A stretch of DNA of 49,995 nt, the filler included, from Streblomastix strix (lineage: Eukaryota): NCBI GenBank assembly GCA_008636045.1. It is 3 parts of 3 records of this genome, joined end to end, with 100 filler letters (N's around TTAATTAATTAA, not from the genome) between each part and the next. Parts side by side here need not be neighbours in the genome. Positions count along the whole stretch, not along the records: positions 33,404 to 49,995 come from SNRW01000789.1; 2 more parts are not named here. The stretch is one strand, 5' to 3'. Both the position numbers and the translations under genes were made by a program. Positions 16,609 through 49,995 of the stretch are shown piece after piece. Below the pieces are notes generated by a model, which worked only from the letters and a program-made list of their open reading frames with translations, searched no databases and was not told the DNA's origin. Position 1 is the first letter of the stretch; each line of letters opens with the position of its first letter.

Positions 16609-16708
16609 NNNNNNNNNNNNNNNNNNNNNNNNNNNNNNNNNNNNNNNNNNNNTTAATTAATTAANNNNNNNNNNNNNNNNNNNNNNNNNNNNNNNNNNNN
16701 NNNNNNNN
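16609..16708. other. Artificial contig linker
   Basis: N44 + TTAATTAATTAA + N44 (100 bp), identical to 33304-33403. Confidence 0.97.
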
Positions 16709-19975: not shown

Positions 19976-20099
19976 TATTGATGCTTATATCTTGGATTTA
20001 CTGGCCAAATTCTTATTAATAGAATATATATGAGTAATGTATGCTTCTAAAAATGTTCTAAAAAGAACGAGAATCAGTATAATCCAGAAATTACTAATG

Positions 20100-20863
20100 A
20101 ATTAATGAAAAGAATTCAACGGAGCTGTCTTATATTCAGTATTTGATTGATAATGGTTGCAACGAGTCGCAAAAATAACTTTGTGAAAATTTATGCTTTG
20201 ATGCTAAAGTAAATTCATCGTGTTAGGCCGAGATGAGTCATTTTCTGTTCCAGCACAAAAAACGGCGTAAGAAGATGTTTACGAAGGAAATTGATTCAAA
20301 TATATTTATGCCCTCATATATACAAGTATAAATATACAAACAAGGAACATTTATCTGTCCTTGAGCACTCTGTATTAGTCAACCAAATAAATTAGAAAGA
20401 TTGGATTAATCCATTTGAGAAAAGAAAAAGATAAGAAGTTTTGATATATATTATTGATTAAAAAGGATATGTTGATGATAAATAAAAATATAAAATAGAA
20501 AAATAATTTAGTGATTAAGAAGATAAAATCAAAATTGAATAAGAATCTGAATGGTATTTGCTATTATGTGGTGAAAGTTATGATTTTATTGATCAATAAT
20601 TGGAAAATGCAATTGGTGAAGAACTTTAATAACAGAATAACAGAACAACAACAGCTCCTTCATCACAAATGATTCCATCTTCATCAGGACATTTTTTAAC
20701 AAAAGGAATACTCTAAGTCAATTTGTATAGAGGTTATTTTTAATTTAATTTGTATTCATACATGCATATAAAAAATTTTTTTAGAATTAAAACTACATTA
20801 AAAAATACAAATTGTACTAGTTAATATGAAATTAACACTTAATACTCAAAAATGAAAAATTGA
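20100..20863 (+). pseudogene. Degenerate hypothetical gene fragment divergent from the surface-protein gene
   Basis: Open stretch ...NQKDWINPFEKRKRQEVLIYIIDQKGY...EWYLLLCGESYDFIDQ. The 5' part is frame-disrupted and is duplicated inverted at ~23840-24200. Confidence 0.35.
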
Positions 20864-23638: not shown

Positions 23639-24306
23639 ATTTGACTTATTTCACGTAATATTGCCTTGAGTAACCAATAAAGTTTACTATTGAAGTACAT
23701 TAAAAGTAATATCAATTTTAACAATGAGTTTATTAAGTAATTTTTTTATAATAAAAATTCATGATTATACAAATAAAAAATTATTCTATTTTTTATTTTA
23801 TTTATCATAAATATTTCATTTATAATCAATAATATACTTTAACATTTCTTATCTCTTTCTTTTCTCAAATGGATTAATCCAATCTTTCTAATTTATTTGG
23901 TTGACTAATACATGGTGCTCAAGGACTGATAAATTTTCCTTATTTACTTATTTATACTTGTATATGTGAGTTCATAAATATACTTGAATCAATCTCCTTC
24001 ATAAACATCTTCTTACGCTGTTTTTGGAGTTGGAATAGAAAACAGTTCATCTCGGCCTAACACTATGAATTTACTTTAGCTTCAAAGCATAAAATTTAAC
24101 AAAGTTATTTTTATACCTCGTTGCAACCACTATCAATTGAATACTGAATATAGACAGCGCAATCGCATTCTACTCATTAATTTTCAAGTAATTTCTGGAT
24201 AGTACTGATAATTGCTCTTCTTCAAACATTTATAGAAGCATACATTACTCATATATATTCTGGTAATAATAATTTAACCAGTAAATCAAAGATATATTCA
24301 TCAATA

Positions 24307-28299: not shown

Positions 28300-28662
28300 T
28301 CAAGAATCTGATTATGAAGCATTTATGCTATCAGCTTTCTTCGAAAAGCCAGCTTCGCTGACTGATTTGGAATCAGAATTTTCATTAATACTTTCACTCT
28401 AATCACTTAAATGATTTGCTGCCTATGGCAATAATTCAATTTACTTACAACGTCGTATTACATACTCTTTTACATGAAACACCTTTAATTAATCATGTTT
28501 ATAATAAAATTTATATAGCGGTATTGTCATATATTTATTCAATGTGAATGCTCTTGCTGTAGATAACAATTCCTTATTTTATTTTACGAATTAGCGCATT
28601 TCATTAACTGTTTTGATTGATGGTATTTATAATAATAATAATGACTTTAATTCCTATGTCAT
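28300..28662 (-). CDS. 120-aa conserved element protein
   Basis: MTQELKS...IKTVNEMRQFVKQNKELLSTARAFTLNKYMTIPLYKF...*TGA; aligns by eye with 37320-37670. Confidence 0.7.
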
Positions 28663-28754
28663 TTTATTAAAAATTAAAAAATCAAACTACTCCAAAATCT
28701 AACACAAAATAAACGAGTTTTTTTCCAACATACAAAATGTCGGACAAATACAGA

Positions 28755-31700
28755 ATGAGTAAATAATAGATTTAAAACCTACTAGACTAATTATAAGTTC
28801 AATATTTACCTAATTATAAATCAGTTGAATTAAGAAATATGTTAACTAATGAATTGCATCGTTTGAATTACTAAGGTCACATAACTGTTACAACTGAAAT
28901 TGTAGCTTTTGTAAATCAAATTGTTGCTATAAGAAATGAATAATAATAGTAATAATTAGAATAAGTTGAACAATAACAATAACCCTAATTATAATAATTA
29001 ATAGAAACAGTTGATGAATAGTATTAATAGTTGAATAATGATTAACATTAATCACAATTAGTCAAAAATATTGATGAGATCATAAATGAATTGGATTAAT
29101 CTGATAATACTGATGATGATCTATTCAATCCTGATAAATACAGAGCTAATTACAAATAAAAATTTGATTAAAGTGGTAGAAGATAGCGTATGCAATAATT
29201 GATACAAGCATAGCAATAAATCACCAATTAAATAAATTAGTTATAACGGTCATTATAAACAATTAATAGTATTTTAAGTGAAGAATTTGATTTAGATACC
29301 AACTCTGTTGACGGCATAAATGCTAATGAACAGATATAACCAACTGATATTAACGAAAATTATAAACTGTTGTTAGTTGAACAATAATTGAAACACTAAT
29401 AAAAATTAGATTAATAAGAATAGTTACATCAAAAAGAGATACAAGAATTAAAGGATAGATTAGAGAAATAGAATAAAGCAGCTGTTCTAATCCAAAAGCA
29501 TTATCGAAGGCATTTAGCAGAGCAACTAATGAAATAATCAATTAATTCTGCTAAGGTAATTTAAGGCAAATGGCGAAGACATAAGCTATACGAATAATTA
29601 GAATAGCTAATCATCAATTAAAGATATAAGAGATAGGGTGAAAAGCCATTTAGATTACTCAGTTATTTAGAAGCAAAATTAGGCGCTAAAGAGTTCGCAA
29701 AAAGAGTCAAAAAACTTAATGAAGAATATTATGGATTACATTAGAATCATTTTAGTGAACCGAGTATAACGAAAACATAGTAATTAAATAAAGATAGGGA
29801 ACTTGAATAGAAAGCATTCGTTATCTTCACACCATAGAATTTATAGGCTTATTATGTTGCATTAGATTAGGCATGATAGAAATTCTAGGATAAGAATGAA
29901 GTTAGTATAGAAGGATTATCTGATGGGCTAATGAAGTCGAAAGATATACTCAATAAAGAACCATATATTTAATACTATTACAATCATTTCTATGACTTAT
30001 AGCAACTGAAAATAAAATCTACTAGGTATATGAATTAGAGAAAGCTAAGCCTTATAAAGCATACATTAGTTTTGGATCTATCTGGTAGAAAAAGAAATAG
30101 GTATACAAGCATTAACAAACATTAGATGAATATCATTACACTCACACTACACCTAATGCTGGTGATAGTTACAAAACTCTATCTAACACAGTAGTTCGAG
30201 ATAAACAAACTAATGACTATTTCAAACAGAAGGCTGTCGATCTACTATCCGATTATTAAGATCCAATTCATGAAGATTCATCGACATTAATGACTGCACT
30301 ATATTCATTTTTGATTGTTGTTTACCGATTACCGTTAGGTACTAAAATGGATAAAATATGTTAGCACTTTAATAAAGAAGGTGTCACTAGGGATATTGAT
30401 TGTGAATATAATATATATTGGTTTATAGTAGCATCATTTGCATTGCACCCTGATATCGATAATAATAAGAGTAGGGTTAGTGATGCAATTAAATTGTTTC
30501 TCTAATACCATGACGTTAACTCAAGCTAGAGATTAAATAAAGCTAATAAATAATTACTCGAACAATATAAAGGTTTCAATTATGTAACTGATCTCGAAAA
30601 ATATCAATAAATATTCAAGCTAAACGTAATAACATATATGTGTGATGAGGTGAAACAAAAAACAAATCGTAGTGATGTCGAATAATTTAATAAATTTGAA
30701 GAACATATTATTGACAAGGACTATCAAACTGTTAATGTATTATTAGTTTCGTTGTCATTAGTCGATGAAATTCATGCAATGTATATTAGTGATATTGATA
30801 AGGTAATTAATGGAAAGCTCTGTCCTCTTAACTGTTAGACGATATTCAATACTAAGAACTAAAATTATAAGCGAGATCTTGCGAGACATTTGAAGTTCTG
30901 TTAGGGTCCATAGACAGCTAAATAAGTTAAATTAGATCATTTACCAAAGCCATATTATCCACATATATCAAATAATAAGTTACTCTAAAAATTAGTAGCA
31001 ACGGGCTAATCAGATTTGTTAATGCCAACACTCAATTACATTACATTTGATTTTGAGACAGTAAAGAACATAATTAATGAAGGTAATATAATAGCTTAAT
31101 TAGAACCATTATCTGTAGCGTCAGCAGCAACAATAAATGACTAAATTACAACGTAATATTTTGATTTACGAAATGGAACTGACTTTATTGAATAATGGAT
31201 AAGTTAATTGTTTGAAGTTGCTATTAAAGTCAATGAAGCTAATTAATCAAACATACCCGATATAACAATTGAAGATAAAAACTAGCATTAGCACGGAGTT
31301 TATCCATACAAGCCTCAAGTATCTGTTATTAGATTCAATTCTAAGAAATTTGATATAAATTTATTACTCAAACATCTACTTAAAAATAAGACTAAAATTT
31401 AATATTTAGGAACAACAACCTAGGCCAAACAAACAATTGTATCACATTAAGATTATGATTTTGACTTGAGATTTATTGATATACTATCATTCATTCCACC
31501 AAACAATACATTAAAGTAGTTCGTTGAGAAATTTGGAACCAAAGGTATAAAATTAACAAAGAGTATATTTCCACATGGATCATTCAATTATGATAACTAT
31601 AAATTAGTGTTAGGACTAACAATTCCATTCACTAAGGATGATTTCTATGACAAGCTTAATAATAAGAATATTAGTGATGAAGATTATGAATAATATGTTT

Positions 31701-33190
31701 ATGATTTCACTTCATTTCAAGACAGATGGGAGTATCTAAAGCACTATAATATCAGGGATGTTACTTGTATGATTAATCCAATCAATCATCTTATTCAAAT
31801 AACATGGGAGGAGAAATCAATATGTTAGGGTGTATATCATTAGCTCAAATTGCTAGTTAAATTAAATACAAGTACTGTTATGACAAGTTCGATATCAATG
31901 CAAGTTATAATATAGTTAATGGATTCGAATAATTCGAAGTCACTTAATACTGGTGGAATAACAAAGTTAAGGGATATATTAACCAAGATGAGTTTGCTAA
32001 GAGGGATACAACTAATAATGTAATTGAAGATGATATTGATTGGATTAGGGATAAAGTAGCTACTGAAACATGCCATCTATGTCACAATAAATTCACTAAA
32101 GAAAACAAACCCACATTAGATAGAATTGATAATTCAATTGGTCACACAAAATCGAACTGCCAACTTGCTTGTTAAATATGTAATACCGTTAAGGCTGATA
32201 AAGATAATGATATTAGTAAATTAAAGATATAATTAATGAAATATGCAATCCATGAACATCTACCTATGACTATTAACAACGAATCTGTATATAATATGTT
32301 AAAGAAATGTATGTAGGGTGGTTTGTCTAATGTGTTTCATTAATGTAATTTGAAAGGTGTCACACACATCAACAAACTTAGATATAATCATGTTACTAAA
32401 ACAATAACATCATATGATACTCCTCATATAATTACTCACATCCTTGACTTAGATTTCAACTCTCTCTATCCAAGTGTATTTAGTGGTATCTTCAACAAAA
32501 ATAACCCTTATACGAATAATCGAATATATCAAGCTGGAGGAGTAACTAGTTATTTCAAATGTACATCTAATAGTTCAAAATAGAAAGCTCGCGATGTAAT
32601 TATGAGTGATGATAGATATACTGACATTGGATAGCTATTCTGTGTTAAAATTAAAGGTCATATTGATGAAAAACATATTAACTCATATATCAAATTAGCA
32701 CCTATATGGAGGAAATTAACATACAATAATTCAATTGAATAGATAGGAGAATTTATGTACAATAAGATGAAATCATAGGGATTAACTGTTGATAAACCTA
32801 CTACAAAACTAACTTCATTGCTATCGACACACAATCAATTTATGTGCTTCACTAATTACATATTATGGTTTTTGATTGATTATTGTAATTTTATTATTGA
32901 TGACATTGATTCAATTGCTCTATTCGATAAACACCTAGGTTTTGAATCATTTGCCTGTACAATGATGGCTAAGAGATAGGATGCAATTAGCCAGCACAAT
33001 GACACGAAATCACTATACTACAAATAGATACTAAATAGTGCTTTTGGAGGAGAAGGATAAAATAATGCTAAATTTGATAAGATATCATTTAACAATGCTC
33101 GATAGACATCACTCAAATAATTGAAATTGGATCATAAGATAACAAGGAAATTAACTGATACTACATACAATTCTGATGGTGAAGTTATTG
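28755..33190 (+). pseudogene. polB: Protein-primed family B DNA polymerase (pPolB), disrupted and truncated
   Basis: ExoI YITFDFET (31037-31060), ExoII xFNSKKFD, ExoIII YLKHYNIRDV, motif A LDFNSLYPS (~32450-32475), motif B YKQILNSAFG (~33020-33048). In-frame TGA at 29874-29876; frameshifts near 30010 and 31818; motif C absent. Confidence 0.92.
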
Positions 33191-33303
33191 TATGTTAATT
33201 TCCTCCATATAGGTGCTAAATTGATATATGAGTTAATATATTTTTCATCAATATGACCTTTAATTTTAACACAGAATAGCTATCCAATGTCAGTATATCT
33301 ATC
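33185..33303 (-). repeat. Fold-back inverted copy of 32611-32729
   Basis: 119 bp reverse complement with 2 mismatches, at the contig end. Confidence 0.9.
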
Positions 33304-33403
33304 NNNNNNNNNNNNNNNNNNNNNNNNNNNNNNNNNNNNNNNNNNNNTTAATTAATTAANNNNNNNNNNNNNNNNNNNNNNNNNNNNNNNNNNNNNNNNN
33401 NNN
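33304..33403. other. Artificial contig linker
   Basis: N44 + TTAATTAATTAA + N44. Confidence 0.97.
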
Positions 33404-35031
33404 CTCTGCCTTAATATCTGGCATCGTAATAAATGAATATGCTAGAAAGAAACATAAATTTTAATTATTTTTCTCAGGGTCAATATATCGAATCTCTCGC
33501 CTAATAATATGCTTCTTTAATGATGGTATTGTTCGAACACCACCAGCGCCTGCATGTTAAAGCCTAAACACCTGAATCATTATTGAAAATATTCCTACTA
33601 TTTTCTCTTTGGTGTCCATGATGGTTTTCTCTTACATTTGAATTATGTGGTTTCTAATGTATCTTTTATAATCCTCCAAATCTAAGTGGGTGCGTATGGT
33701 TGTCAGTGCTTTCATCTATGTTCTGGCTTCAAGAGGATGATTAATTTTATACGTTATTTATTAATCGTTTTCTTAGCCATCAACTCGTTCAATAATCACT
33801 CCAAAATCAAATGCAATTTTGAATGCAAATTTCTATTCTCGCTAATATATTTCATCTAAATAAACATCAACATCTTCAATCGTTTTCAAATCATTTTTGT
33901 AATATTCTTTTGTAGGGCTGATGGTATGAACATAGAATAGGTCATATTTTACGTGTTAATTTTATAAATGTTTTCGCTCAAATTAAATTATTCTTTCATA
34001 TTCTTATTCGAGTTGTGGCTCGCATAACATTATCGTGCTCTATAGGACGTTAAGAGCATCAATTGGCCTAAAAATCTTGCCCTCATTTTCATTATTGAAT
34101 TATTTTATTTCATCTTTAACATTTTTAAACACATCTTCATTCTATTTTTATTTAAGATTTATTTTTTATTCATTGATTTCTTTCAATAAATTTGCATGTT
34201 TGACTCGTTAATCTTCCATAACTTGCTCCCATTATTAATTGTGCTGTTGGCTCTATTCGTCTTAAGCGTTCATTTGCTATTTGTTATTCTATTCTTGCAT
34301 AAATTTTTTAGCGTAAGCATCACCGATAATTTATTCGTTTTGAAGGCTTTATTGAATATCTTATCTGAATCGTCTTGCAAATGGTTCGGATTATAATATT
34401 GTATTTCTAACTATATCTCTATTGTTTCTACCGTGATTTAAACCGATTTTATCTAAAATTTATGAAAATTATGACCTCAATTCATTAACATTTATTTTCT
34501 ATTATATTTCAGGGTCATGTAAAACAATAATTCTCTTATAATATTTTGAGTTAATTTTTTAGGCCTTAAATCCAATTGATAATCCTCCTTGAGTCTAACG
34601 ACTTCGTGAGCTTCACCTTGTTCGGGTTTCAGTTCATGTGATAATTCAGGAGACAGTTAATAATTCCGTGCTTGCATTTACGTAATATAATTCTGCATTT
34701 ATATCAATTATTATTGTCGTTGTTCCATTTATAATTCAGGCGATAGTTAATAATTACGTGCTTACATTTACGTAATATAATCCTACATCAAAACCTATTA
34801 TTATTATTCTGTTTATTATTATGGCACTGGCTAATAATCGCGTACTTGCGCCCATCTTATATAGTCTCACATTTAAGTCATATATTATTATGTTTATCTG
34901 GGAGATTGATGCAGTGGTAAATTTAATGGTAATAGCTCTGGTAATTCTTGAGTCATTAACGGAGGCACAATTGGAGGCACAATTGGAGGCGTGCGTCGTC
35001 TTTATGAGTCTTACCCCTATTTACCTGCCAT
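33404..35031 (-). pseudogene. N-terminal part of pPolB (Gln-rich extension, terminal-protein-like region, start of vOTU-like domain)
   Basis: ...YLDEIYQREQKFAFKIAFDFGVIIE...IVGIFSIMIQVFRL...NQNLCFFLAYSFITMPD is colinear with the contig-2 pPolB (KPYKAYISFGSIW...LYSFLIVVYRL...YNIYWFIVASFALHPD). Contains frameshifts and TGAs; truncated by contig start. Confidence 0.75.
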
Positions 35032-35067: not shown

Positions 35068-35260
35068 ATAATGATTAATAAATTGGACTGGGTTGATTGG
35101 ACCGAGTCAAAACATCAATGTATTTTATGAAATTGGCACAAAGAAATGGAATCGTTAATGAATGACTTTTGACTGGACCGTGTGGATTGGGTGGATTGAG
35201 TCAAAAACTTTTATAAAAAGCTGTGGCCAACTGGACAACTGGCCAATAATTGAGAAAAAT
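35068..35260 (+). repeat. Intergenic palindromic element, copy 1 (long form)
   Basis: TGAATGACTTTTGACTGGACCGTGTGGATTGGGTGGATTGAGTCAAAAACTTTTATAAAAAGCTGTGGCCAACTGGACAACTGGCCAATAATTGAGAAAAA. Confidence 0.95.
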
Positions 35261-35283
35261 AAATAAAAATAAAACCTATTAAA

Positions 35284-36364
35284 TCATTTGAATTTATATT
35301 TAGCTAAATCAAAACCACCTATTTATTCATGTCTCTATGTTAGAATTTGACCATAATATTACATGGCTTAACCAAGTGTTTCCTTAATTCTAGCATCGAC
35401 ATCTTTGGCTTAATATAATTGAGTAATAACGGTAGGCAATTCTTTATTATATAATCTTTTAGCAAATGGCAAAAATTCGTATTATCGTTACTAAATTTTA
35501 GTTTTATTGCTTCTGTTATATATGTCTATTTTTCCATCTTATCTTTCTAATATTTCTACCGCAGGACTAATAAGAACTGAATTCCAAGCAGATGCCATTA
35601 TTTGTTGTTTGATTGCCATTGGCAATTATGCGCCTCCATTTTGGTTTATGATTTTTTTGGCGTTGACGGTGAATGCTCTGAAACTAAAATTCTTTATCTC
35701 CCTTACCTTATGCGGCTTAGTCATTAACAGCCATTTCATGTAAGGGCCGCCTTTTATTCCAGATGCTTTTAATTTGGCTGCCAATGCTGCTCGTTCTAAA
35801 TCATTAACATCTGAATAATATTTTTTCTTCCAATTTCTTTTATGTTAATGCTCTAAGTCGCCAAATCCTACAGCTGTTGTATAACCATCGACTGAATAAA
35901 TCGCGTTCTTTTTCTTATCAAATACAACCACATTATCAGGAGTGGCTACATTATCATCTAAATCTTATTCCAATACACTAAATCGTTTGTCTAAATGCTT
36001 ATCTTATATATATTTTTTGGGCACTGACGGCAGACGATAAGCTATTAATTTTCTTCATATCTCTGTTCAAATAACCGACAAGTGTAGCAAGAACATCACC
36101 CGCCTCTTCTCTGAATTATGGGCCTCCATGCTTTCTTGTTGTTTGAATCATACTGGGATGGAACGGCAGCCTACCAAACGGTTTTGCTCGTGATTTCATT
36201 CTGTCCTATCTTGAAGCTTGTGATTCATAATAATCGTAATCATCCTCCATTCCGTCAATGTCCATCATCCCACCTGCACCACTAACACCTAAGCCTTAGC
36301 CTTTTTCCGTTTCAAATTCTTATCTTGCTTCCTTTTCAATTTATTTTAAATCGAATTCTGACAT
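35284..36364 (-). pseudogene. ~360-aa viral hypothetical protein (one +1 frameshift)
   Basis: MSEFDLKQIEKEARQEF...EQDLDDNVATPDNVVVFD...IYSVDGY...KYKFK*TGA; span 1081 = 360x3+1, with the shift near 36015. Confidence 0.7.
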
Positions 36365-36403
36365 TCTATTTCTTATCGAAAAAAAAAGTTTTAAATAATA
36401 AAA

Positions 36404-37193
36404 ATGGCGAGTTTAACATAAAAAAGTTGATAATATGTTAAAAAAAAATAAAAGTGAATAAGCACGAAATTTAAACTTTTATTCATAAAGAGTTAAATTT
36501 TACATATAACTCTGTAAATTTATTGATTGATTAGCGCGGCAGTGGCAAGACGTATAATGTCTTCAAAGAGTTAATAAAATTAAGTTAATTAAAAAAACAT
36601 TGTTATACACTATTCATATATGTCAGCGACTCAAATAATGACACCACTTATAAAAAGATGAAGGATTTAATTAAAATACCGATTAAAATTATTCCATATG
36701 CCGAAACGGATCAAGTGCTGAATGATTTGATAGAATGTAAATAAGCGTATGATGGAATATAAGAAAAATAATTATAAAAAGAACTAACTGAACAATCAAA
36801 AGATGATATATTAACCAATGTATTTGGTGCTAGTGGAGAAGGTAATTTTGACGTCAAATTTCCCCATATGATTGTTTTATTTGACGATGCAATGAGTATA
36901 TTTAAAAATAAAAATAATCCATTATTTAAGAAGTTATTTAAGAACTGATAACCCAGAATAACATACTTCCTTTGTTTATAGGACATCATTGGTTTGGATG
37001 CTGCGATTAAATCAAATCTTGATTCATTGTGGTTCTTCGGTTCATTTAACAGATTAAAATTTAATTAATTTTTTTATTAATCTTCAATACCATCAGATAA
37101 AGAAACAATATGGTATGAATATGTTCGACTAACTAAATAATAAGCATTAGTGGTATAATATAAAATGAGTGGAACAGTTGTTAAAATAATTTG
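36404..37193 (+). pseudogene. A32-like (FtsK/HerA) genome-packaging ATPase
   Basis: Walker A LLI[D]QRGSGKT (36529-36552, first Gly mutated), Walker B HMIVLFDDA, Arg-finger region KN[TGA 36946]QPRITYFLCLQD; frameshifts near both ends. Confidence 0.88.
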
Positions 37194-37216
37194 AAAACAT
37201 TTGAAAAAAGCAAATA

Positions 37217-37324
37217 TTTATTTTTCTCAATTATTGGCCAGTTGTCCAGTTGGCCACAGCTTTTTATAAAAGTTTCTGACTCAATCCACCCAATCCACAC
37301 GGTCCAGTCAAAAAGTCATTCATT
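37217..37324 (-). repeat. Intergenic palindromic element, copy 2
   Basis: Reverse complement of the copy-1 core; starts at the TGA stop of 37320-37670. Confidence 0.95.
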
Positions 37325-37670
37325 TCAGCGCTTAAACCAAATGGTTCAGAACATCCAAAAACTAGTCTAATTTATACTCAATCCTATTCAATTAATCTTT
37401 TGCACAAGTTCTTATACATACTTGACCTTCTATTTTTGATAACTAATAGCCGTCCAATTTATATAATTTATTTAATTTTTACGTTGATAGTTTAGATAAT
37501 TATTATTAATTTTGGGAAATAAATTATTTGAAATCGTTTAAAGTCTCAAAATATTTATGTCCGTCAGTCTAACCTTCGACCCCCTCCTCGTTATCTTATT
37601 CATCATATTCTATTTATAATTTTAAAGTAAATTAATTGTTTTTTCTATTGTCAAATAATATTCTTTCCAT
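37320..37670 (-). CDS. 116-aa conserved element protein
   Basis: Intact ORF: ...YFETLNDFKQFISQNQQQLSKLSTQKLNKLYKLDGYQLSKIEGQVCIR...ALK*TGA. Confidence 0.75.
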
Positions 37671-37704
37671 TTTATTTCTGCAAAAATAAAATAAATAATG
37701 CCGT

Positions 37705-38591
37705 TCATTTGTGTTCAAGTTATATATTCATATATTCCTTAATTTTATTTATGACTTCATCAGTTAAATCTTCATTAAATATATATTTAGTTCCTTTAAA
37801 TTAAATACCTTCCATATTTTTATTTAAATATTCTTTGATGGCTTCATTTTTGGTCATTGCAATACATTCCTAATCATAGTATAAAAATGCATCTTTTAAT
37901 TTCTACATCAATTTTCGACTAATACATTTCTTATTTCTTCTTCGAACCTTTAAAATTGTATTATTTTTATCATCAACTTCTATATATTGAACGGCTAAAA
38001 CATAAGCTGTTTCTATGCCTTATGGAACAGCTCTTGGTTTCAATTGTTATATTTCAATATCTTTTTAATTTATTATTATTTTTAATTCATTTTTTTTAGC
38101 TTTTATTTCTTCATAATTTCGATCAAATGTTATACTTTTGCATGATGCAATAGAAGTTGAATCGTCTAACTAATATTCTAAATGTATTCTTTCATCTAGT
38201 AAATCCATTATTTCATTTACATATTCTAAATATTTAACTGACGTTTTCATGCAGATAATATTCAGAAATTTCTTATGTGCATATGCTCCTCTTATTTCAT
38301 TTGATAAAGATAATGGAAGTTAGTAAATCAGGGGTGGCTCAAATTGAGCCGACCTCCTAATTCGAGACAAGATTTATAGTCTTAAAACATTGGAGAACGA
38401 ATTATGTTTTTTAATTATTTATTTGTTTTTTCTTACTAATTTATTTATTAAACAAATTTTGTTGCATTAATATAATCGTCTTTATCTCGGATTATTATAT
38501 TGAATCCATTATTTGAGCCAACAGTAAAATTTTCATTGTTTGTTGCAATTGATTATATTGTTCTGTTGTTTTGTTCGTTTGTTGATTCCAT
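37705..38591 (-). pseudogene. KilA-N domain protein (frameshifted)
   Basis: NGFNIIIRDKDDYINATKFVQQ...NEIRGAYAHKKFLNIICMKTSVKYL, then coiled coil and LKPRAVP; frameshift near 38340-38370. Confidence 0.8.
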
Positions 38592-38647
38592 CTTATATAC
38601 AGATAAAAAGTTAAATTTGTATAAAAATAAAACGATTTATTTTAAAA

Positions 38648-38956
38648 TCATTTAATTTATTTTATTTTTTCATCTGCTTCTTAAATTTTTAATTCTAATT
38701 TCTTTATATTTTTTTTACAAACTGTTTCAGATTCAATATTTCTTAAATTGGCCTCTTTTTAAATTAATTTCATCATTTCTATCATTTTTTATTTTGCATT
38801 AATTAATCTTTCTTATTCATATTCATAATCAATAATTTTAAACTCTAAGTCTTCTCCATCTCTTTCAGCTTGCACTAATAAAAATTTCATAGTATCTACC
38901 ATAAAAATTCGTGCATATTTTTCAAAACTTAAATTCTATTTCTCATTATTTGCCAT
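38648..38956 (-). CDS. 102-aa coiled-coil hypothetical protein
   Basis: Intact ATG..TGA ORF under table 6: MANNEKQNLSFEKYARIFMVD... Confidence 0.6.
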
Positions 38957-39004
38957 CTCTATAGTGATAAAAACATGAAATTAAATAATAATAAATAATT
39001 TATT

Positions 39005-39397
39005 TCAATATTCCAGCATCAACTCCAGAACAAATTTTAATTATTAATTTATTTTCATTAATTCTTAATTTTAGCGGAACCATACATATAAATATCTGTT
39101 GTGGTTATATAGAATGAAAGGCTTATAAACTCGTTATTCATTACAATAGTCAACAAATTAATCGAAATATTATTCTTCCTAAACCATTGAACTATGAACA
39201 GAAATGTCTTCGTTAGCGCCTTAGTTTGAACAATGACATTAGCAGAATATTATTTTTCTTTAATTATCTGAATTTACAAACGCGTATGGTAATGCAAAAC
39301 CAACTCCATTTTATCCGTTTTCTCCGATAACAACTCCATCATTTTATATTAAAGTGTAATATTTTAAGTTTTATGCTGAAGTCATATTTGAAACCAT
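39005..39397 (-). CDS. 130-aa beta-rich protein, candidate minor capsid/structural protein
   Basis: Intact ORF: ...GFALPYAFVNSDNQRKIIFCQC...DISVHSSMVQ...YLYVWFR...KFVLELMLEY*; lies directly downstream of the capsid-like gene. Function is inferred. Confidence 0.55.
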
Positions 39398-39514
39398 TTA
39401 TTACGAAATAAATAAAAAATAATTAATATAACTAATGACCTATTTAATTAACTGTATTAATGTTCAGGTGTTAGTTATATATGCAAATAAAAAAATAAAA
39501 AATGTTCAATTATT

Positions 39515-41235
39515 TCAGGCACTTAATGGTCCAATAACTTCATCAAATGAATGGTTTGTATCATATATGCAGCTACCACCTGCAGCGCGTGAAAACAACC
39601 AAAATGTATCATGAACTGTGCATAAAATAGGATGCGGTGGTATCTTTCCGCTGGAATCAACATTATAATATGAATCTGTAGCTCCTTGATATATTGGTGC
39701 TCCTCTGAGTTCGACAGATGTGTTTTAGTTTTGTGTGTCTAATCTGTCAAAAGTTAGTGCTCCGTTGCTGTTCCTTTCACATTATAGAGTTATCAAAAAG
39801 CTTGTTAAATCTGTATGAGGGTTCAGTCTTCGGGTTGCAGTATTTCTTAGCATTGTCAAAGCATCTTCGAATTCATCAATGGCTTCGAATAAAAGGTCAA
39901 GATTTGACGCATTGAGTTATAATTGGAAGAGTTATTGGTCTAGCGTATTCATGGGCATATCTGGGAAATTACGTCCGCAGGTGGTTACTTGCATGTTCTG
40001 ATAGCAAGGATTTTCAAAGCAAATCGTAGCTCTTGCATCTTTAAGGAACAGAAGGCAGAAGTCGGTTACGTGAGACAGAGGAATATTATAAGATGTTCGT
40101 ATTCATGTTAAAGTAGCAGACGTTGGAAATGGCCATACTTCCACACGTTGAGCGGGAACAACAAATGGACGTTAGCTGTATAATTTTCGGACTCGATTAA
40201 GGCATGCATCAGTAGCTTTATAACCTGCCATGTTAGCGGTTACCTCTGTTATGACATAATTTTTTATGCTTATGGTGACCGGTTTGATGTCGCATATTAA
40301 GTTTTTCAATCCTGACTCAGTTAGTGGTTCCGCATGTAGTCCTGTAATCAAGTCAGAAGTGCATCCCAATTACGTAAATTATTTAGTATATTGGAATGTC
40401 AGACTCCAATTTCTGAACATCAAATCAATATCCATTTTCTTCTATTGACTGCTACCCAATAACTCATCTTTATTCATTGTATAATATTTAGCCATTGAAA
40501 TTATTGGATTCACTTGACAGAAAACGAATGCATGAGGATTAATTTTGAATTTTATTTTTAAATCACCAAATTGGCCATTAGGGTAGTCAGTGAATGCAGA
40601 GAATATCAAGAGGTCATCAAGTGGAATGCTGACTTTGAAACGTATTGGAATTGTATATGGAATGGATGTTTGATTTCCTATTAGCTCTTCAATCTCTCGC
40701 ATATTTATATTTGTTCCACACGCTAACGTATCAAAATTATGAATGTTCTCGTATAAAGAATGTATATGTTTTCTATTATTTTTCTCACTTTTTGGCTTGA
40801 TTGTATTATAAATGAATGATTCAGTTGTTGCGTCATTCTATAAGTTTCCATCAATAGTTTTACCTCTATGATAGATGGTATATTCGAGAATAAGATTTGA
40901 GCCTGATTTGAGACCTACGAATAGAACCAATCCGTCTTTATATGATTCGTCAATTTTATCAAATTTATCATCGAGTTAAATATTGGCAGTTAGCACTACC
41001 GACAAGAATGAATTTTATATCTATGTGATGTCGTGGTCTGTGTCTGATAAACTAATGATTATCTCCTTATCAAATAAGCTGGCATTTATGATTCTGGTTT
41101 GATTTCCTTGATTGAATAACGATGTTCTCCGTCATTAGTGAATGGAACGATAGCATTACCTAACAATGTTTCTTCAATTGTTCCTGCTTGTTGTAAATGT
41201 GTGGCTTTCATTAAGAATCTGTTTATCTTTTACAT
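39515..41235 (-). pseudogene. Probable major capsid protein (~570 aa, double jelly-roll inferred)
   Basis: Long beta-rich ORF: LFVGLKSGSNLILEY...FKVSIPLDDLLIFSAFTDYPNGQFGDLKIKFKINP...FVVPAQRVE...CFENPCYQNMQV...ITLQCERNS. Size and context next to ATPase and fibre genes fit an MCP. Frameshift near 41075 and TGA at 40103-40105. Confidence 0.7.
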
Positions 41236-41303
41236 TCAATAAAAAATTGAAATAGTTAAATATAAACGTAATGAAATAAAAATCATTTATTAAATATTTA
41301 TGA

Positions 41304-41387
41304 ACCATGTGGATTGGGTGGATTGAGTCAGAAACTTTTATGAAAAGCTATGGCCAACTGGACAACTGGCCAATAATTGAGAAAAAT
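41304..41387 (+). repeat. Intergenic palindromic element, copy 3 (5'-truncated)
   Basis: ACCATGTGGATTGGGTGGATTGAGTCAGAAACTTTTATGAAAAGCTATGGCCAACTGGACAACTGGCCAATAATTGAGAAAAA. Confidence 0.95.
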
Positions 41388-41411
41388 TTAAATCGTTAAT
41401 GTTTATGTTTT

Positions 41412-41726
41412 TCATTGGTTCTGTAATTTTATTCTTCAACTCTGTATGTCAATTGTTAATTTTTATCTTAAATATTCATCATTTCTCAACGTTTCAAAAT
41501 CTTATCTAAATTAACCGGTTTTATCCGCACCATAGCCATAATCAAGAAATGAGCTAGCAGCATCTAAACCATTGCCTATTGTTTAGCCTACAGGACCCAA
41601 TATTCCAAGTATCGGTATTGCAAATGGTTTCATAAACGGTTTATAAATGTTATGATTAGCCCATTAAAGACCCTTCCCTACTTTTTGAACTAATTGCTTT
41701 ATTTTAAGAAAAATCTCAATTGCCAT
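41412..41726 (-). CDS. Small protein with N-terminal amphipathic helix (candidate membrane-lytic virion protein)
   Basis: MAIEIFLKIKQLVQKVGKGLQWANHNIYKPFMKPFAIPILGILGPVGQTIGNGLDAASSFLDYG...; first TGA at 41436-41438, second in-frame TGA at 41412-41414. Confidence 0.65.
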
Positions 41727-41808
41727 AACTTTATTTTTAATAAAAATAAATTTTTATATGTACTATTTTGGATTTGAATAATTGATCGATTTATTTTTCA
41801 TTAATAAA

Positions 41809-41987
41809 TTGGCCAGTTGTCCAGTTGGCCACAGCTTTTTATAAAAGTTTTTGACTCAATCCATCCAATCCACACGGTCTAGTCAAAAGTCATTCATAAT
41901 TTAATCCACTTCTTCGTGCCAATTTCCTAAAATTCATCTATGTTTTGATTCGGTCCATTCAACCAAATCCATTTTATTAGTCATTAT
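41809..41987 (-). repeat. Intergenic palindromic element, copy 4 (long form)
   Basis: Reverse complement aligns with copy 1 over ~180 bp. Confidence 0.95.
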
Positions 41988-42012
41988 CAAACGTTCAATA
42001 AATAAACGTTTT

Positions 42013-43593
42013 TCACAAATAATACATTCCACTGGCGTAATGTTTATAAACATCAGCTGAATCTATTGGGATTGACTCTTATGGTTCTTATAATTAAAAG
42101 TATAACATTTTAAATTATGAATTTACTATAAAATAATTCACTGAAAATTTATTCTATCTTCCGCCCTATGTGCTACATATAGTTGCAGGGAAGCCCAAAT
42201 TTTTACCATCTGCAGGTATTACAGAATCAGGAATACGACCAACTTCTTACGTTCTGCCATTTAAACCTTTAGATTCAAAATATAGATTGAATACGCATAC
42301 TCTACAAGTGTCATCATCAACGATATAGAACGTATTATATGCTGATGAGGGGAAAAAATCATTTATCATAAACTGATTATAAACATTTGTTATCGTATAT
42401 TGTGGTTGTGGCGATGAACCTAATTATTTTTCATGTTTTATTATTACTTCGTCGATGTGAGATTCTACATCTTCAGGTGCTGACTCGTTGGCGTTTGTGC
42501 TGTTCGTATAGTTATCAAGTATATAAGTTCTTTAAAATTCACAATCTAGCATATTCAATTATCCGCTGACGGCCACCTATACAGCTGATGATTTATCATA
42601 CATATCCTTGAACAAACTCATAGCAGAAAATTCCTGTTGTTCGACATGAATAGGCATATATTTCGTATTAGGTGGTAGTAGTTTTTTGCTGATTGTCGAA
42701 AATAATTTATATACAGTCTATTATGCTTCATAATTGGCACCTAATTGTGTCAATTTTGCCCTAAAGCTATAAGTGATGAATGGACCATCTTTAATAAAAT
42801 ATGCTGCTCTATCTGCTTTATATCTCGCTAATTCATCCATAAGTTTTATTTCACTGTTCAAATAATTAGTTCGATTTAGCCCTTACACTACCGCCTCGAT
42901 TAAATTTGTTTAATTTTTCACTGTTTTATAAACGTACGATTAGGCTTCAAATTAACCATTTCCATTAACATTCCATGTATCCATAATGTCAATTTTTCCG
43001 TCATTATTGGAATCATAATTTATTTTTTTCGATGATTCATAATTTCTATAATATGTGATATTAAGCACAAGAGCAGTATTTGACGGCAGCCACCGAGAGC
43101 TTATAATAAATGGCACTCCTTAATCGATATAACAAAATATGTTATATGTATTGGAGGCATCGGTTCCAACTAATGCAATCACTTAATCACCCTGTTTTGG
43201 TCTCGCTTCTTGTGGATAACTTTAAAATAAATAACCGTTCGGAAATACACCTGTTGTTGCATATGACGCGGTAAGTGTAATTCCATCGCCATAAACGACT
43301 AATTATTGATCTGAACCACTGGAGGCTAAAAAACTTTATCGCTCTAATTATGTACTCAAATCCAATTTCGTTATAGCATTCGGCATTGGTGGCTCGAACT
43401 TTTCATTTGATGCGTAGATAATATCATCGTTATTTTTCACTTGCTACTACAGAGTTTGGTTTCTAATTGGAACAGATTGCGGCTGTTGCTCGAGTGGCTT
43501 AGGATAACGTTCTTTGATATATGCGTATAATTCTGGGAAGTAAGATAAACCAGCAGCGTCTAATAATCTTTCATCGATATAAACATTTGACAT
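42013..43593 (-). CDS. 526-aa protein with three repeated beta-domains resembling fibre/receptor-binding heads
   Basis: Intact ORF (527 codons). Recurring segments YLFQSYPQEARP, KLFSTISKKLLP and EVGRIPDSVIP, each preceded and followed by beta-strand-like patterns. Confidence 0.65.
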
Positions 43594-43654
43594 TTATATT
43601 CAATAAAAATAAATAATTAATCCAAACAATTTCAAACAATTATTAGCAGAAGCA

Positions 43655-46563
43655 TCAAAGCATCCAACTGAATTATAAGCCAACATCATCATTAATACCC
43701 AAGCTTCTGTTGAGTCGGTAGTTATTCGGAAATCTCAATATGAATACACACATGTTAATGTCTTTCGCTTCATTGCGAATGAAATAGGATATGTAGTGCT
43801 TGGAGGTGTTGGAGGAGTTATGGAATTACTTATGCTTCCAACAGTGCAAATTGTAGTTTATGTAGAAATATTGATTTAAGTTTTTGGTTAAATTTCCATC
43901 ATCAAAGTATAAAAAATGCCTATTCGAGTAAATTTTAAATAATTGAATGTAATATTAGAATCTAAATTGACAACTAAATTTGTTATGTCCTCCACTTGCA
44001 CTCCTCCAAATGATGATAATAATTGGTAACCGCCACCAGCCAATAAAATCAATGTATCATCCTTACCTGTTTTAGCAAATCCAGCTGCACTAACATTTGA
44101 ATTGAATGTTTTTGTGCCATATATCGTTTAATTATCATAACGACAAACAAAAGCATTATAAATTTCTCCTCTTGTCAAATAATCTTTATCATACTCCGAC
44201 ATTGATAACTCATCATCATCTATTCGTAAAACTCCATGAATTATTTAAAGTTCTTATCCCGTTTTTTTCACATAATTAGAATCATCAACACTTCCACCTC
44301 CGAATTCAGAAATTGGTTTTGTTCCACCTGCTCCAAGTAATACAACGCTATCATCAGCACCTGATTTAACAAATTATGAGCCTGTAATTGTTCCCATTCC
44401 ATTGATAGAACTTACGAACCTACAAGCATTATTGCATGTCTTGTTCGCTGTTATTGTCTATGAAGTGCCCAAGGTCATATAACCGCTTAAATCAACATCA
44501 CCAACTTCAATTTATGATATCAAATAATCAGTTTCTGTTTTTGTATAAGTTGTTGATTGATTTGCTTTCAACAGCAGCAACGCATCATCTTCACCTTTTG
44601 TTTATGAAACACCTGAATTGGCTTTATTACTGAGCAGATTATCGGCTTCTCCTTTAATGTATGAATCGATTAATTATGTCTTATCAGCCTTCAACAGCAG
44701 CAGAGCATCATCCTCTCCTTTGGTGTATGAAACTCCTGAATTAGCTTTATTACTGAGCAAATTATCGGCTTCTCATTTTGTGTATGAATCAATCAATTAT
44801 GTTTTATCAGCCTTCAACTGCAGCAACGCATCATCTTCTCCTTTTGTATATGAAACACCTGAATTGGCTTTATTATTGAGCAAATTATCGGCTTCGCATT
44901 TAGTGTATGAATCAATTAATTATGTTTTATCAGCCTTCAACAACAACAGAGCATCATCTTATGTCTTAGTGTATGCATCGATTTAATCGCTTACGTTTAA
45001 TTTGTCGTCGAGTAGAGCATCGGCTTCAATCTTCGAATATACATCAATTAATTATGTTTTATCAGCCTTCAACAATAGCAACGCATCATCTTATGTCTTA
45101 GTGTATGCATAAATTTAATCAGAAATATTTAATTTTAGATTTAAATTTTAATCTTTTTCAGTTCATGAATAATTTTATGATTTATTATAATAATTTGAAA
45201 AATTAACGCTTGCATTTACGTCCTGTATGGCCTTAACACCACCACCAGCACAAACAACAGAATTATTATCGTAATTTTATACAGATATTCCGACTGTGTG
45301 GATAGTTGTATTAAATATCTTTTAACCTGTAATAGTTTCATCATAGTTAGTCGTTATAAATGAACTATTTTTCGCAGGTATTAATGTATTTCCATCAAAT
45401 GATAAATCTGTTATTGCATTGCCTCCTCCTGTAGCAGCTCCAAGAATGGTCATGACGATGCTCATATCTGGCAGTTCTGTTTCTAGTGCTCGAAGATTAG
45501 AGCCATCCCACCAATAATCCATGATTTACTTATCAACTATATATAAATTATCACCAATTGCTAATTTTGCAACGTTTTCCTAATCTTCCATCCAAGTATT
45601 CATCTGATCCGTAGTCGCGAAGACATATCCTTTTGATTCGCCTGAAGCGATATCTCGAACTTCTTATAATTATGACTATGATACTAATGAACTTACTAGC
45701 ATATCACCATCACCAGCTAGAAGAATTGATTCATCATTTTTATTCAATTTCGATATGCTTGAAACACTTATTATTCCGAATTATTCTTGACCTGTTATTG
45801 TTTGAGCCGAAGTTAAATCAACATAATCCGCTAACTCTGTTTTATCAGCCTTCAATAATAGCAGAGCATCATCTTTCTATTTATTATAAGCATCAATTTA
45901 ATCAATAATATTTAATTTTTCATCAAGTAAGGCATCAGCTTCAGACTTATTATATGCATCGATTTAATCGCTTACGTTTAATTTGTCGTCGAGTAGAGCA
46001 TCAGCTTCTTATTTGGTATATGCATCAATTAGCTCAGTTTTATCAGCTTTCAATAATAGCAGAGCATCATCTTCAGTTTTCGAGTTAGCATCGATTTAGT
46101 TATAAATATTTAATTTATCATCGAGTAGGGCATCGGCTTCAATCTTCGAATATGCGTCGATTTAATCGGATATATTTAATTTATCGTCGAATAGGGCATC
46201 GACTTCGGTTTTATTGTATGCATCAATTTAGTCTGAAATATTTAATTTTAAAGCAAGCAATTCATCATCTTCTGTCTTCGAATATGCATCAATGAGCTCT
46301 GATTTATCAGCTTTCAATAATAGCAGAGCATCATCTTCTTATTTCGTATATGCATCAATTTAGTCGGAAATATTTAATTTTTTATCTATCATTTCATAAA
46401 TTTCTTCACGATTATAAGGTTTAGACGCTTCATTAGTTATATTTATTATATTTTCAATATTTTTTACTTCGTTAATTAAGCCAATAGTGTTATACTTACT
46501 TGAACCATAAAGCACTTAATCATGATTTAACACAACATCAAGCATATGCAAATCTCCGTCCAT
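43655..46563 (-). pseudogene. ~970-aa fibre-like protein with phage-tail-fibre-type repeats
   Basis: ~20-aa repeats (D)AYTKxEDDALLLLKADKTQLI and AYSKIEADALLDDKLNISDQI; QTITGQKxF..SILLAGGG modules. TGAs at 45163, 44773 and 43735; frameshift near the 3' end. Confidence 0.8.
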
Positions 46564-46594
46564 TTTATAAAAATAAAAATAATTTATTATGGCA

Positions 46595-47131
46595 TCATAT
46601 TTTATTTAACACAGTCATTAATCCTTTAGATACTGCACTAATAATTTTGCTTGTAATTTCTCCTGAATCTAAAATATTTTTTATTTTTCTTATTTTTTAT
46701 AAACAAATTTTATAGCTATCCCTTAATAAATTTACTTTTTCGACGTCGATCTTTAATATATTTACGTTTCCAATCAATATCTCATTTAATGTTTAAGTCG
46801 AATCGCTGCAAAACCTACCACTACATCCTTCATCCTCTATACTCAATTAAATTTAACTTTCTGGGACGTCGAAAGTGTAGGCAACAACCCGAATCAAATA
46901 ATTTTCAGATAATATGAAATGCACTGATTCTTTAATCATATTCTCGTCTTCACTAATGACATCCAACAGCCAACGACACACTGAAGGGTCTGGAGTTAAA
47001 TTTTCTTCAAAAATTGAACTTCTGCACCTAGCTGACAAGGTTGGAGTTTCACATCTGATAACCTGTTGCTGAAATGGGTCAATTTCTTTTTCAAATTATG
47101 GTTCCACTTCTGGAATAGTTGGACTCTTCAT
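46595..47131 (-). CDS. 178-aa viral hypothetical protein
   Basis: Intact ORF (179 codons): MKSPTIPEVEPQFEKEIDPF...VLNKI*TGA. Confidence 0.7.
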
Positions 47132-47505
47132 TTTAATAATGTTAAAAATAATTAATTATTTGTGTAAAATAAAACCGAAAATTGAGCCTAATTAATAGAC
47201 TAAGATTGAGCTAAAAAGGTCATATTCGGAATCAGCGCATATGAATTGTGTCTATAGTTGATTATCAAATCATTTTAAAATTTCAAGAAAATAAAGTTAT
47301 TTTTTTATTTTTTATTTTTTTAATTCCTATATATAATGACTGTAAAATTATAAGCCAAAAAATAAGCCAAAAAATTAATGTTTTTGTATTGCCTTGAGAA
47401 TGATATTTATATATAATGTTGATACGTAAAGTTCAAAAATAACGTTTAAATTGATATCTCGAACGGTTGATGCATATCAATTTTGCAATATAAAAGTGTA
47501 TGATT

Positions 47506-47632
47506 TTGGCACGAGAAAATGGAATAGATAGTGAATGACTTTTAGGTGTTCCGAGTGTTCCGAGTGTTCCGAGTCAAAAAATTTTAAAAAATGCTGTGGC
47601 CAACTGGACAACTGGCCAATAATTGAGAAAAA
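47506..47632 (+). repeat. Intergenic palindromic element, copy 5 (variant with (GTGTTCCGA)3)
   Basis: TGAATGACTTTTAGGTGTTCCGAGTGTTCCGAGTGTTCCGAGTCAAAAA...GCTGTGGCCAACTGGACAACTGGCCAATAATTGAGAAAAA. Confidence 0.93.
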
Positions 47633-47714: not shown

Positions 47715-48795
47715 ATGGAATCAAAAGACAATCAAGCACAAACTAGCCATTCATTAACAATTCAAGAACGTATCTAAAATTTGTATGTGAATACTTATGA
47801 TTATAATAAATTTCCAATCATTTGTAAAACAGGCAAATCATTTTCAGGTAGAGCAATCGACATATCAAAATGTTAAAATCTTGCTGTTGTTGATATTGAT
47901 ATAAATAAAAATTTAGATAAATTAATATAAAAATAAATTCGAGAATTAATCGTTGAAAAAATTCCTTAAATGTGGGATTAATCAAAACAGAACATGGAGA
48001 ACTTCATATATATTGTGATATCAATGGATTTGAATTATAGGGAACATCAAATATATAAGTTTATAAAAGTGATAATTTTAATGTGGATATATTTGCATGT
48101 GTTGATGATAAACAAAGATGGATTATGTAATATGGGTCAAAAATACGTGATAGAGTTAAAGCAACAAAGCAAATGGAAGATTAGAACGAATAAATTGGTG
48201 AAATTAAAGTTGTATATTAATATGAGGCAATAAATGATTATTTAAATAAAATAAATTTATGTGAATTAGGACAAATTTTGAACATATTCGGAATAGATTT
48301 TGATGTTAATTAATAGGTCATGACAAATTAAAAGGAATAACATAATGAGTAAGACAAACCACTGCTACAACCAACAGGATTAATCGGTATGAAAAAGGAT
48401 TTCGTGATTATGTTATGTAAAGGAATTAGTGGTCTTTAAATACATAACGACTCATAACGTCATAATTTTAATGATGAAATAACTTTACTTCCATTATTTG
48501 CTGCAATTAATAGTATAATTAATATTGAAGGAATTGATAATCAATATATTTGAGAAACATATAAAAAAATAAAAATTAATAATAATTTAACAGATAAAGC
48601 AAAATAATTATTTGATGCAGCTAAAATAAGATATGAATAAAAATAATTACATCCATTCGTTTTATAAAAAATAATTAAAAAATATAATCCAAAATATTAT
48701 TAAGAATATGTAATGCCTATGTTAGTGAATGAAAAAAGATGTAAAAATTTAATTGAAGTATAATAAATTGATTTAAAAGATAGTTTCACATTATT
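47715..48795 (+). pseudogene. Prim-Pol (AEP superfamily primase-polymerase) N-terminal region, frameshifted and truncated
   Basis: Motif I NLAVVDIDIN (~47877-47906); motif II KTEHGELHIYC (~47985-48016). Confidence 0.8.
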
Positions 48796-49995
48796 CATGT
48801 ATTAAATTTTATTCTTTTTATTTGCTGCATCATATTATTTAACTATGAATACTTAACCTCCATCACATGGTTCAGTTCGTAATATTCTGGTTAAGTCCTG
48901 AGCTATTGTTTCATATTCATTATATTTATAGATACCATTTTATAACTTTTTTTTACATATCAAATAATGTGAAACTATCTTTTAAATCAATTTATTATAC
49001 TTCAATTTAATTTTTACATCTTTTTTCATTCACTAACATAGGCATTTCATATTCTTAATAATATTTTAGTTTATATTTTTAGCTATTTTTTATAAAACGA
49101 ATGGGTGCGATTATTTTTTTTCATATCTTTTTTAGCTATTTCAAATAATTATTTTGCTCTCTCTGTTAAATTATTATTAATTTTTATTTTTTCATATGTA
49201 TCTTTAATGTATTGATTATCAATTCCTTCAACATTAATTATACTATTAATTGCTGCAAATAATGGAAGTAAAGTTATTTCATCATTTAAGTTATGACCCT
49301 ATGAGTCGTTATATATTTCAAGACCACTAATTCCTTTACATAACATAATCACGAAATCCTTTTTCATATCGATTAATCCAATTGATTGTATTAGTGGTTT
49401 TTCTTACACATTATATTATTCCTTTTAGTTTGGTATGAACTATTAATTGACATCTAAATCTATTCCGAATATGTTCAAAATTTGTCCTAAATCACATAAA
49501 TTTATTTTATTTAAATAATCATTTATAGCTTCATACAAATATATAACTTTAATTTCTCCAATTTATTCGTTCTAATCTTCCATTTGTTTTGTGGCATTAA
49601 CTCTATCGCGTATTTTCGACCCACACTACATAATCCATCTTTGTTTATCATCATCACTTGCAAATATATCCACATTAAAATTATCACATTTATAAACTTA
49701 TATATTTGATGTTCTCTATAACTCAAATCCATTAATATCGCAATAAATATGAAGCCCACCATGTGCTGTTTTGATTAATCCCACATTTTAAGGCATTTTT
49801 TCAACGACAGATTCTTGAATTTATTTTAAATTAATTTATCTAAATTTTTATTTATATCAATATCAACAACTGCAAGATTTTAACACTTTGATATATCGAT
49901 TGCTCTACCTGAACATGATTTACCAGTTTTGCCAATGATTGGAAATTTATTGTAATCATAAGTATTTATATACATATTTTAGATACGTTCTTGAA
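48796..49995 (-). pseudogene. Second, inverted Prim-Pol copy
   Basis: 48963-49995 is a diverged reverse complement of 47761-48795, with LAVVDID and KTAHGGLHIYC. Confidence 0.8.

Follow-up and report, generated by a model that had tools for sequence, protein, structure and literature searches.

An apparently virus-restricted, positionally conserved composite element in the gene spacers of a Polinton-like virus of the oxymonad Streblomastix strix

Related signals and the viral setting

The hairpin rule of mimiviruses describes a long stem of ~13 pairs closed by a short loop, with poly(A) added within the hairpin. In mimivirus and Marseillevirus this hairpin is a polyadenylation signal, which lacks sequence conservation and is a substrate of a viral RNase III (PMC4402537; see also PMC5413956). 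In the pGKL linear virus-like elements of yeast, termination at a stem-loop followed by a U-tract has been shown (PMC6211774), and the hrs of baculoviruses are dispersed repeats with palindromic cores that serve as origins and enhancers (PMC6669502; PMC4535591). For virophages and Polinton-like viruses (PLVs), the available text of the relevant papers gives short promoter motifs or none (PMC8547959, PMC12220804, bioRxiv 10.1101/2022.07.28.501842), among them TCTA in mavirus and AAAATTGA in PgVV-14T, all of 4-8 nt (PMC8547959; bioRxiv 10.1101/2022.07.28.501842). Endogenous viruses of a Metamonada group that use code 6 have been reported in Streblomastix strix itself (PMC10120064).

The element described here, present in five copies in the window (the whole stretch of 49,995 nt that was analysed), resembles each of these in part. 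Like the mimivirus signal it is palindromic and closely follows stop codons in the spacers of a virus; unlike it, it is one repeated sequence, its stem has 9-10 pairs including G-U, and it accompanies only 5 of 12 stops. Since the mimivirus signal is not sequence-conserved and the element is (24-nt core identical in 5/5 copies), and since its stem also falls short in length, the element is not the mimivirus hairpin signal with which the sequence-only reading had compared it. With the pGKL terminators it shares a weak stem-loop near the stop (pGKL median 26 nt), a U-rich end and an AT-rich linear setting (PMC6211774); in contrast, the available text of that source describes pGKL ends as sharing no sequence motif and pGKL as encoding its own RNA polymerase, of which none was found here. 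As in the hrs, dispersed intergenic repeats carry a palindromic core, but hrs are arrays of one unit, whereas the element is a single composite of three sub-motifs at a fixed distance to stops. By analogy, it would work like the yeast stem-loop terminators and is laid out somewhat like the hrs, apparently as a member of neither. Virophage and PLV promoters are likewise repeated cis-signals in the spacers of small capsid-coding viruses, and the tail ATAATTGA fits their WWWWWTGW pattern (bioRxiv 10.1101/2022.07.28.501842) and precedes an ATG in copy 5; however, the element is 87-200 bp long, and in copies 1-3 the tail points against the gene. The S. strix viruses of PMC10120064 have the same host, code 6 and a capsid protein of the same kind, but no internal repeat is described in the available text outside the supplements. 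A literature search that covered texts other than subscription journals and supplements found no description of the element in work touching S. strix or its viruses.

Three ORFs of at least 90 aa are present in the window when it is read in the standard code, and long ORFs emerge under code 6, which was applied with TGA as the sole stop. PLV DNA occupies the window from ~28.2 kb to its end. The element-bearing virus is a decayed, ~20-kb Polinton-like virus of an oxymonad, whose region contains polymerase-B-like pieces with an HNH/EndoVII domain, an ATPase, a KilA-N gene, a capsid gene, fibre-like repeats and a primase-like gene (Table 1). Capsid protein, packaging ATPase and family-B polymerase, by which PLVs are recognised, are thus all present, the latter two being assigned from motifs read in the ORFs, with no match for either in domain libraries; for the ATPase-like gene the motifs are a Walker-A-like RGSGKT and hhhhDD. 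With Preplasmiviricota clusters, in which 12-29% of members carry capsid families, the capsid gene has an Atlas similarity of 0.96-0.97; its Atlas neighbours are Preplasmiviricota and Parabasalia, and its structure prediction was too poor to use (pLDDT 32). Gene X found no match by Atlas (0.85) or by fold comparison. All 120 listed homologues of the capsid gene and 45/45 homologues of gene X are named Streblomastix strix; the capsid profile matches 543 protein representatives at E<=0.001, ten full-length ones that were looked up being ENA, Logan, JGI or NCBI records, and the capsid group may extend well beyond S. strix. No related loci with DNA for capsid or polymerase were found, and neither a viral RNA polymerase nor an element-binding protein was identified in the element-bearing virus. 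The genes beside the element carry frameshifts and private stops, and many are broken in this virus copy, which bears out the decay noted before.

Table 1. Element copies and neighbouring viral genes, in positions of the window.
Feature	Coordinates	Strand	Remarks
Gene W	34477..35031	-	Gln-rich, broken; start 192 nt from copy-1 core
Copy 1, long form	35068..35264	+	core 35224-35247; between gene W start (ATG 35031) and gene X stop
Gene X	35284..36364	-	broken; ~360 aa in intact homologues; stop 36 nt before copy-1 core
Packaging-ATPase-like gene	36455..37194	+	broken; stop 38 nt before copy-2 core
Copy 2	37215..37324	-	core 37233-37256; between stops of ATPase and gene 37320 (convergent)
Gene 37320	37320..37670	-	its TGA falls in far border of copy 2
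Major capsid protein gene	39515..41226	-	frameshifted here; 570 aa in homologues
Copy 3, short form	41301..41387	+	core 41351-41374; between capsid start (41226) and small-gene stop (41412)
Small conserved gene before capsid gene	41412..41726	-	stop 37 nt before copy-3 core; ATG 81 nt from copy-4 core
Copy 4, long form, tail replaced	41808..41987	-	core 41808-41831; between small-gene start (41726) and 526-aa-gene stop (42013)
526-aa gene	42013..43593	-	penton-like label by position alone
Fibre-like repeat protein gene	43600..46563	-	broken; label from repeats and position
Copy 5	47506..47632	+	core 47597-47620; between two gene starts (47131 on -, 47715 on +)
Primase-like gene	47715..48728	+	broken; ATG 94 nt from copy-5 core; we take it to be primase-like from its motifs, no library match

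Several further features were observed in the window. At the left end of the viral region, 28620-29876(+) encodes a Gln-rich coiled-coil protein with an IQ motif (Pfam E 1.2e-5). Two polymerase-like frames, 31726-33231(+) and 33290-34300(-), stand head to head at a scaffold gap beside an inverted repeat (32611-32729/33185-33303; 119 bp, 98%), and an HNH/endonuclease VII domain is inserted in the polymerase at 31990-32220 (phrog_1035, E 1.5e-10). The DNA left of this gap, which includes a polymerase-like frame and no element, may be a second virus copy. Both N gaps (16609-16708 and 33304-33403) hold the TTAATTAATTAA linker, an assembly artefact. The primase-like gene occurs as an inverted pair (47761-48795 and 48963-49995, 90-93% identity) that is too diverged for a simple amplification fold-back, and host genes for Cys-rich repeat proteins form a large inverted duplication (17441-20494 and 23789-26099, 81-91% identity).

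Anatomy and placement of the element

The anatomy, placement, spacing and strand asymmetry of the element were observed directly. Its 24-nt core is matched exactly at 35224(+), 37233(-), 41351(+), 41808(-) and 47597(+), against none in 100 shuffles, and BLAST of three copies against the window returned these five alone, with the extents given in the sequence-only reading and none in the 28 kb of host sequence. In the direction of the A-rich tail, the parts follow one another as an optional 5' extension (copies 1 and 4, and part of it in copy 5), the heptamer GAATGAC, three units of 9 bp, a dyad centred on TTTTATAAAA, the core and AATTGAGAAAAA, the last being replaced in copy 4. The element is therefore directional, running from three 9-bp direct repeats through a TATA-like dyad into a 24-bp core of three 8-bp units. 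Its length varies from 87 to 200 bp, the A-rich tail end being fixed and the opposite end variable. Over 78 nt, copies 1, 2 and 4 share 75-77 positions (77/78 for copies 1 vs 2), copy 3 shares 68-71 with these three, and copy 5, which carries a different 9-bp repeat type (GTGTTCCGA three times), shares 56-60 with the others. The outer palindrome TTTTGACT..AGTCAAAA described earlier stands intact in copies 1 and 4; copy 2 departs from it at one position, and in copies 3 and 5 it is disrupted.

Matches to TATA, CCAAT and T5NT in the element are leads only, being frequent in AT-rich DNA and absent from some copies (TATAWAWR in 3/5); sigma-70 promoter matches did not exceed chance and have no bearing on this host. 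The 24-mer core had no match in the viral_contigs and metagenome_contigs collections. A 19-mer had two bacterial matches, with ~4 expected by chance, and one viral match that lacked the element's other parts. An Rfam search with the element gave no match at E<=1, and a protein search with its own translation returned nothing.

The fixed A-rich-tail end and variable other end (87-200 bp), together with the terminal hairpin, would suit a selfish non-autonomous repeat of MITE, Helitron or REP type that survives only in viral spacers. We regard this origin as very improbable: a terminal inverted repeat is absent (2-8 of 15 positions match), the two ends share AT-only words alone and show no target-site duplication, the 28 kb of host DNA in the window holds no copy, and the element keeps the same sites and orientation in other loci and a fixed distance to stops.

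Between 33.4 and 47.8 kb, the ORF list and homologue mapping give 14 genes with 13 junctions, 14 starts and 12 stops. The element is present at 5/13 junctions, which include tandem, convergent and divergent ones, in both orientations, and 7/12 stops have no element. Its ten flanks comprise five stops and five starts, so that it has no overall preference for 3' ends; with copy 5 lying between two starts, placement at 3' ends was overstated as a rule. Neither the five starts nor the lineage-variable 9-bp repeats figured in the sequence-only reading. The stops on which that rule was based are nevertheless real under code 6, namely those near copies 1-3 (35284, 37192-37194, earlier given as 37193, and 41412) and those at the other end of copies 2 (37320) and 4 (42013). 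The gene at 37320-37670 takes its stop codon from the border of copy 2 (37311-37324).

On the tail side of copies 1-3 the stops lie 36, 38 and 37 nt from the core, a constancy whose chance probability is 0.001-0.005 on a uniform null that was set post hoc, and the last ~20 nt before each of the three stops are unrelated in sequence. A TGA at 41436 is private to the window's copy, another base standing at 41438 in nearly all contig depth of all four runs, so that 41412 is the correct stop and the 37-nt spacing of copy 3 holds. Among gene-X homologues with an intact end, 14/35 run 4-5 residues longer, and the stop-to-core spacing may therefore vary among virus copies. In copies 4 and 5 the GAGAAAAA end faces an ATG, 81 and 94 nt from the core, and the dyad half faces the starts of gene W (copy 1) and of the capsid gene (copy 3). 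Distances from the core on the far side (192, 63, 124, 181 and 465 nt for copies 1-5) follow no pattern.

Strand asymmetry and 3'-end signals

On the strand read by the mRNAs of three genes (gene X, the ATPase-like gene and the small gene), the core folds into a stem of 9 pairs, two being G-U, that is closed by a 4-nt loop and has a U-run behind it; on the opposite strand it folds into a 6-pair stem with no U-run. The element was previously proposed as a bidirectional terminator; from this asymmetry it looks one-way. With G-U allowed, the longest uninterrupted stems have 9 pairs with a 4-nt loop and 10 pairs with a 24-nt loop. Copies 1-3 thus have, close to the stop and on the strand of the mRNA, a GC stem-loop and U-run like those of intrinsic-type terminators. 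Sites with a GC hairpin and a U-run number five in the viral part of the window, all of them the five antisense strands, and none in the host part, at thresholds set after the site had been seen; a separate scan of 41200-42100 gave two sites vs 0.3 in shuffles. Folding z scores of the five antisense strands were modest (-3.1, -2.1, -0.4, -3.1 and -0.1), failing for copies 3 and 5.

Polyadenylation signals were also compared, AAAUAA and AAUAAA being putative oxymonad signals (PMC8767320). After the stops of the three hairpin-facing genes, no AATAAA or AAATAA occurs within 100 nt, the first lying at 247 nt, nowhere in 300 nt and at 120 nt, respectively. By comparison, 5/6 element-free genes with a valid stop (the fibre gene left out) have a hexamer within 30 nt, and the two genes reading the opposite strand of the element have one at 96 and 34 nt. 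This contrast is weak, as the spacers are rich in such hexamers (53 in 1910 nt). The dedicated 3'-end signal put forward by the sequence-only reading thus fits copies 1-3, with their constant spacing, hairpin and U-run on the strand that is read and no host-type hexamer nearby, but it is not general.

The core shows no compensatory change among the five copies, and the variants inferred from peptides (below) would keep the stem. It is equally readable as three 8-bp direct repeats and in this respect looks like a DNA binding site. Copies 4 and 5 retain the core though no gene reads into their hairpin strand. The main rival reading, which we consider less probable than a boundary role but still a serious candidate, is a DNA-level element like the baculovirus hrs, a protein-bound enhancer, origin or packaging site that acts in either orientation and has no 3'-end role. 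The direct repeats, three of 8 bp and three of 9 bp, on either side of an AT-rich dyad, the occupation of tandem, convergent and divergent junctions in both orientations, the retention of the core where no gene ends and a repeat type that varies by lineage at a constant 9-bp period would all agree with it, as would the origin and enhancer activity of the dispersed palindromic hrs (PMC6669502). It leaves unexplained, however, the spacing of 36-38 nt and the strand-specific hairpin with its U-run. Moreover, viruses with a protein-primed polymerase begin replication at their termini, which counts against an hr-like origin.

Other virus copies and a candidate boundary module

Other virus copies were probed through mis-spliced gene models and through contigs from four runs (three studies) aligned to 40900-42400, an interval that covers copies 3 and 4; run X1 may be the window's own source and is not independent. 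Element-derived peptides were detected in 6/371 proteins at E 0.002 or better, a level that no reversed control reached, P0028 being marginal as controls reached 0.005 in another run of the peptide search. Four of the peptides lie after gene X (the copy-1 site) and two before the capsid gene (the copy-3 site), all oriented as in the window. In addition, a contig from another study (X2, record 13) bridges copy 4 to the 526-aa gene, and X1 record 3 has at the copy-3 site a 269-nt spacer that is not alignable at 80%. These peptides and contigs show the element at the same sites and in the same orientation in other virus copies; it is a positionally conserved and apparently virus-restricted cis-element. 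Its core, earlier described as invariant, is identical in 5/5 copies within the window, but elsewhere peptides imply variants, with a changed middle unit in P0032 and P0182 and a lost unit in P0335, as judged from protein.

The repeat type differs between these loci: at the copy-3 site P0335 carries the copy-5 type and P0087 another, P0035 and P0028 have a further one, 29 loose ends of X1 contigs show the copy-5 type, and one X2 contig shows a GTGCATCGA type. Throughout, the 9-bp period and the frame GTG-N4-GR are constant and the middle letters change together across all units, a pattern that fits homogenisation within a lineage. It points to 9-bp repeats that may be homogenised by lineage, the comparison being between viruses rather than between two sites of one other virus. 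Contig depth is higher over the core than over flanking genes, a measure that cannot rank parts and is given no weight here. Among the 40 best-supported of 185 sequence differences none falls inside copy 3 or 4 (P 0.008); this count is likewise given no weight, because the copies cross-map and it covers 40 of the 185.

Gene order was compared in the same material. In 35/38 multi-region proteins the order fibre > 526-aa gene > small > capsid is kept in one sense, and 21 of these, fused gene models from other loci, have the small gene directly before the capsid gene in the same sense. The remaining three comprise one with gene W antisense after gene X (P0029), one capsid-X join and one join of capsid to a host gene; P0025 joins gene X to ATPase-like residues, as read by eye. 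No copy-3/4 inversion was seen in 15 of 21 contig joints, the three opposite-strand joints being single contigs. Both tests under-detect inversions, since gene models fuse genes of one strand and repeats interrupt contigs. That the element is a recombination site, with blocks of genes flipped or swapped among the genome's many virus copies, is, in our estimation, quite unlikely, though somewhat less so than a selfish repeat. The alternating orientation of the copies would accord with it, as would the near-identity of paralogous copies, which implies exchange between them, the rearranged joins in P0029 and P0025, and a spacer beside copy 4 whose length varies between contigs. The one order and sense of 35/38 models, the 21 with small directly before capsid and the 15/21 joints free of the copy-3/4 inversion speak against it, though these order tests are biased against inversions, and no recombinase was recognised among the window's viral ORFs, several of them unassigned. 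The invertible or exchangeable cassettes suggested earlier consequently found no support, on two weak tests. One gene model (P0041) fuses a gene-X fragment to sequence that presumably resembles a DIRS-type tyrosine recombinase.

The reading we tentatively prefer, at somewhat short of an even chance, is that of a virus-specific boundary module in which a one-way 3'-end signal is joined to a protein-binding half. A one-way 3'-end signal is the best reading for three genes because the spacing is constant and the hairpin with its U-run is strand-specific; a DNA-binding role is also called for by the direct repeats, the dyad and the copies that face starts; and since both lines of evidence are present, the element is read as a border module. 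As such it would mark off transcription units from one another in the gene spacers of this oxymonad PLV. The GC hairpin and U-run on one strand would probably end transcripts whose stop sits 36-38 nt upstream: mRNAs of gene X, the ATPase-like gene and the small gene would pass a U-rich spacer and then UUUUUCU before reaching the hairpin, and would stop or be cut near the U-run. The TATA-like dyad and the three 9-bp repeats would be DNA sites for a viral or helper-virus protein, and this half of the element would likely control the next gene. Conversion, or selection for a single binding protein, might maintain the likeness of copies within one virus, in which case the repeat type would differ between lineages.

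Few systems have shown how integrated PLVs begin and finish transcription, or whether this depends on the host or a helper virus, and what they have given is short promoter motifs. A wider proposition, which we hold to be rather unlikely, is that these viruses punctuate their genomes with a conserved terminator of their own and a lineage-specific code of three repeats read by a viral or helper-virus protein, so that the matching factor alone would switch on each lineage. The conserved element with its variable repeat code offers a handle by which transcript ends could be mapped, a binding protein baited and virus lineages typed, and in the S. strix genome, with its very many virus copies, the repeat types could distinguish lineages.
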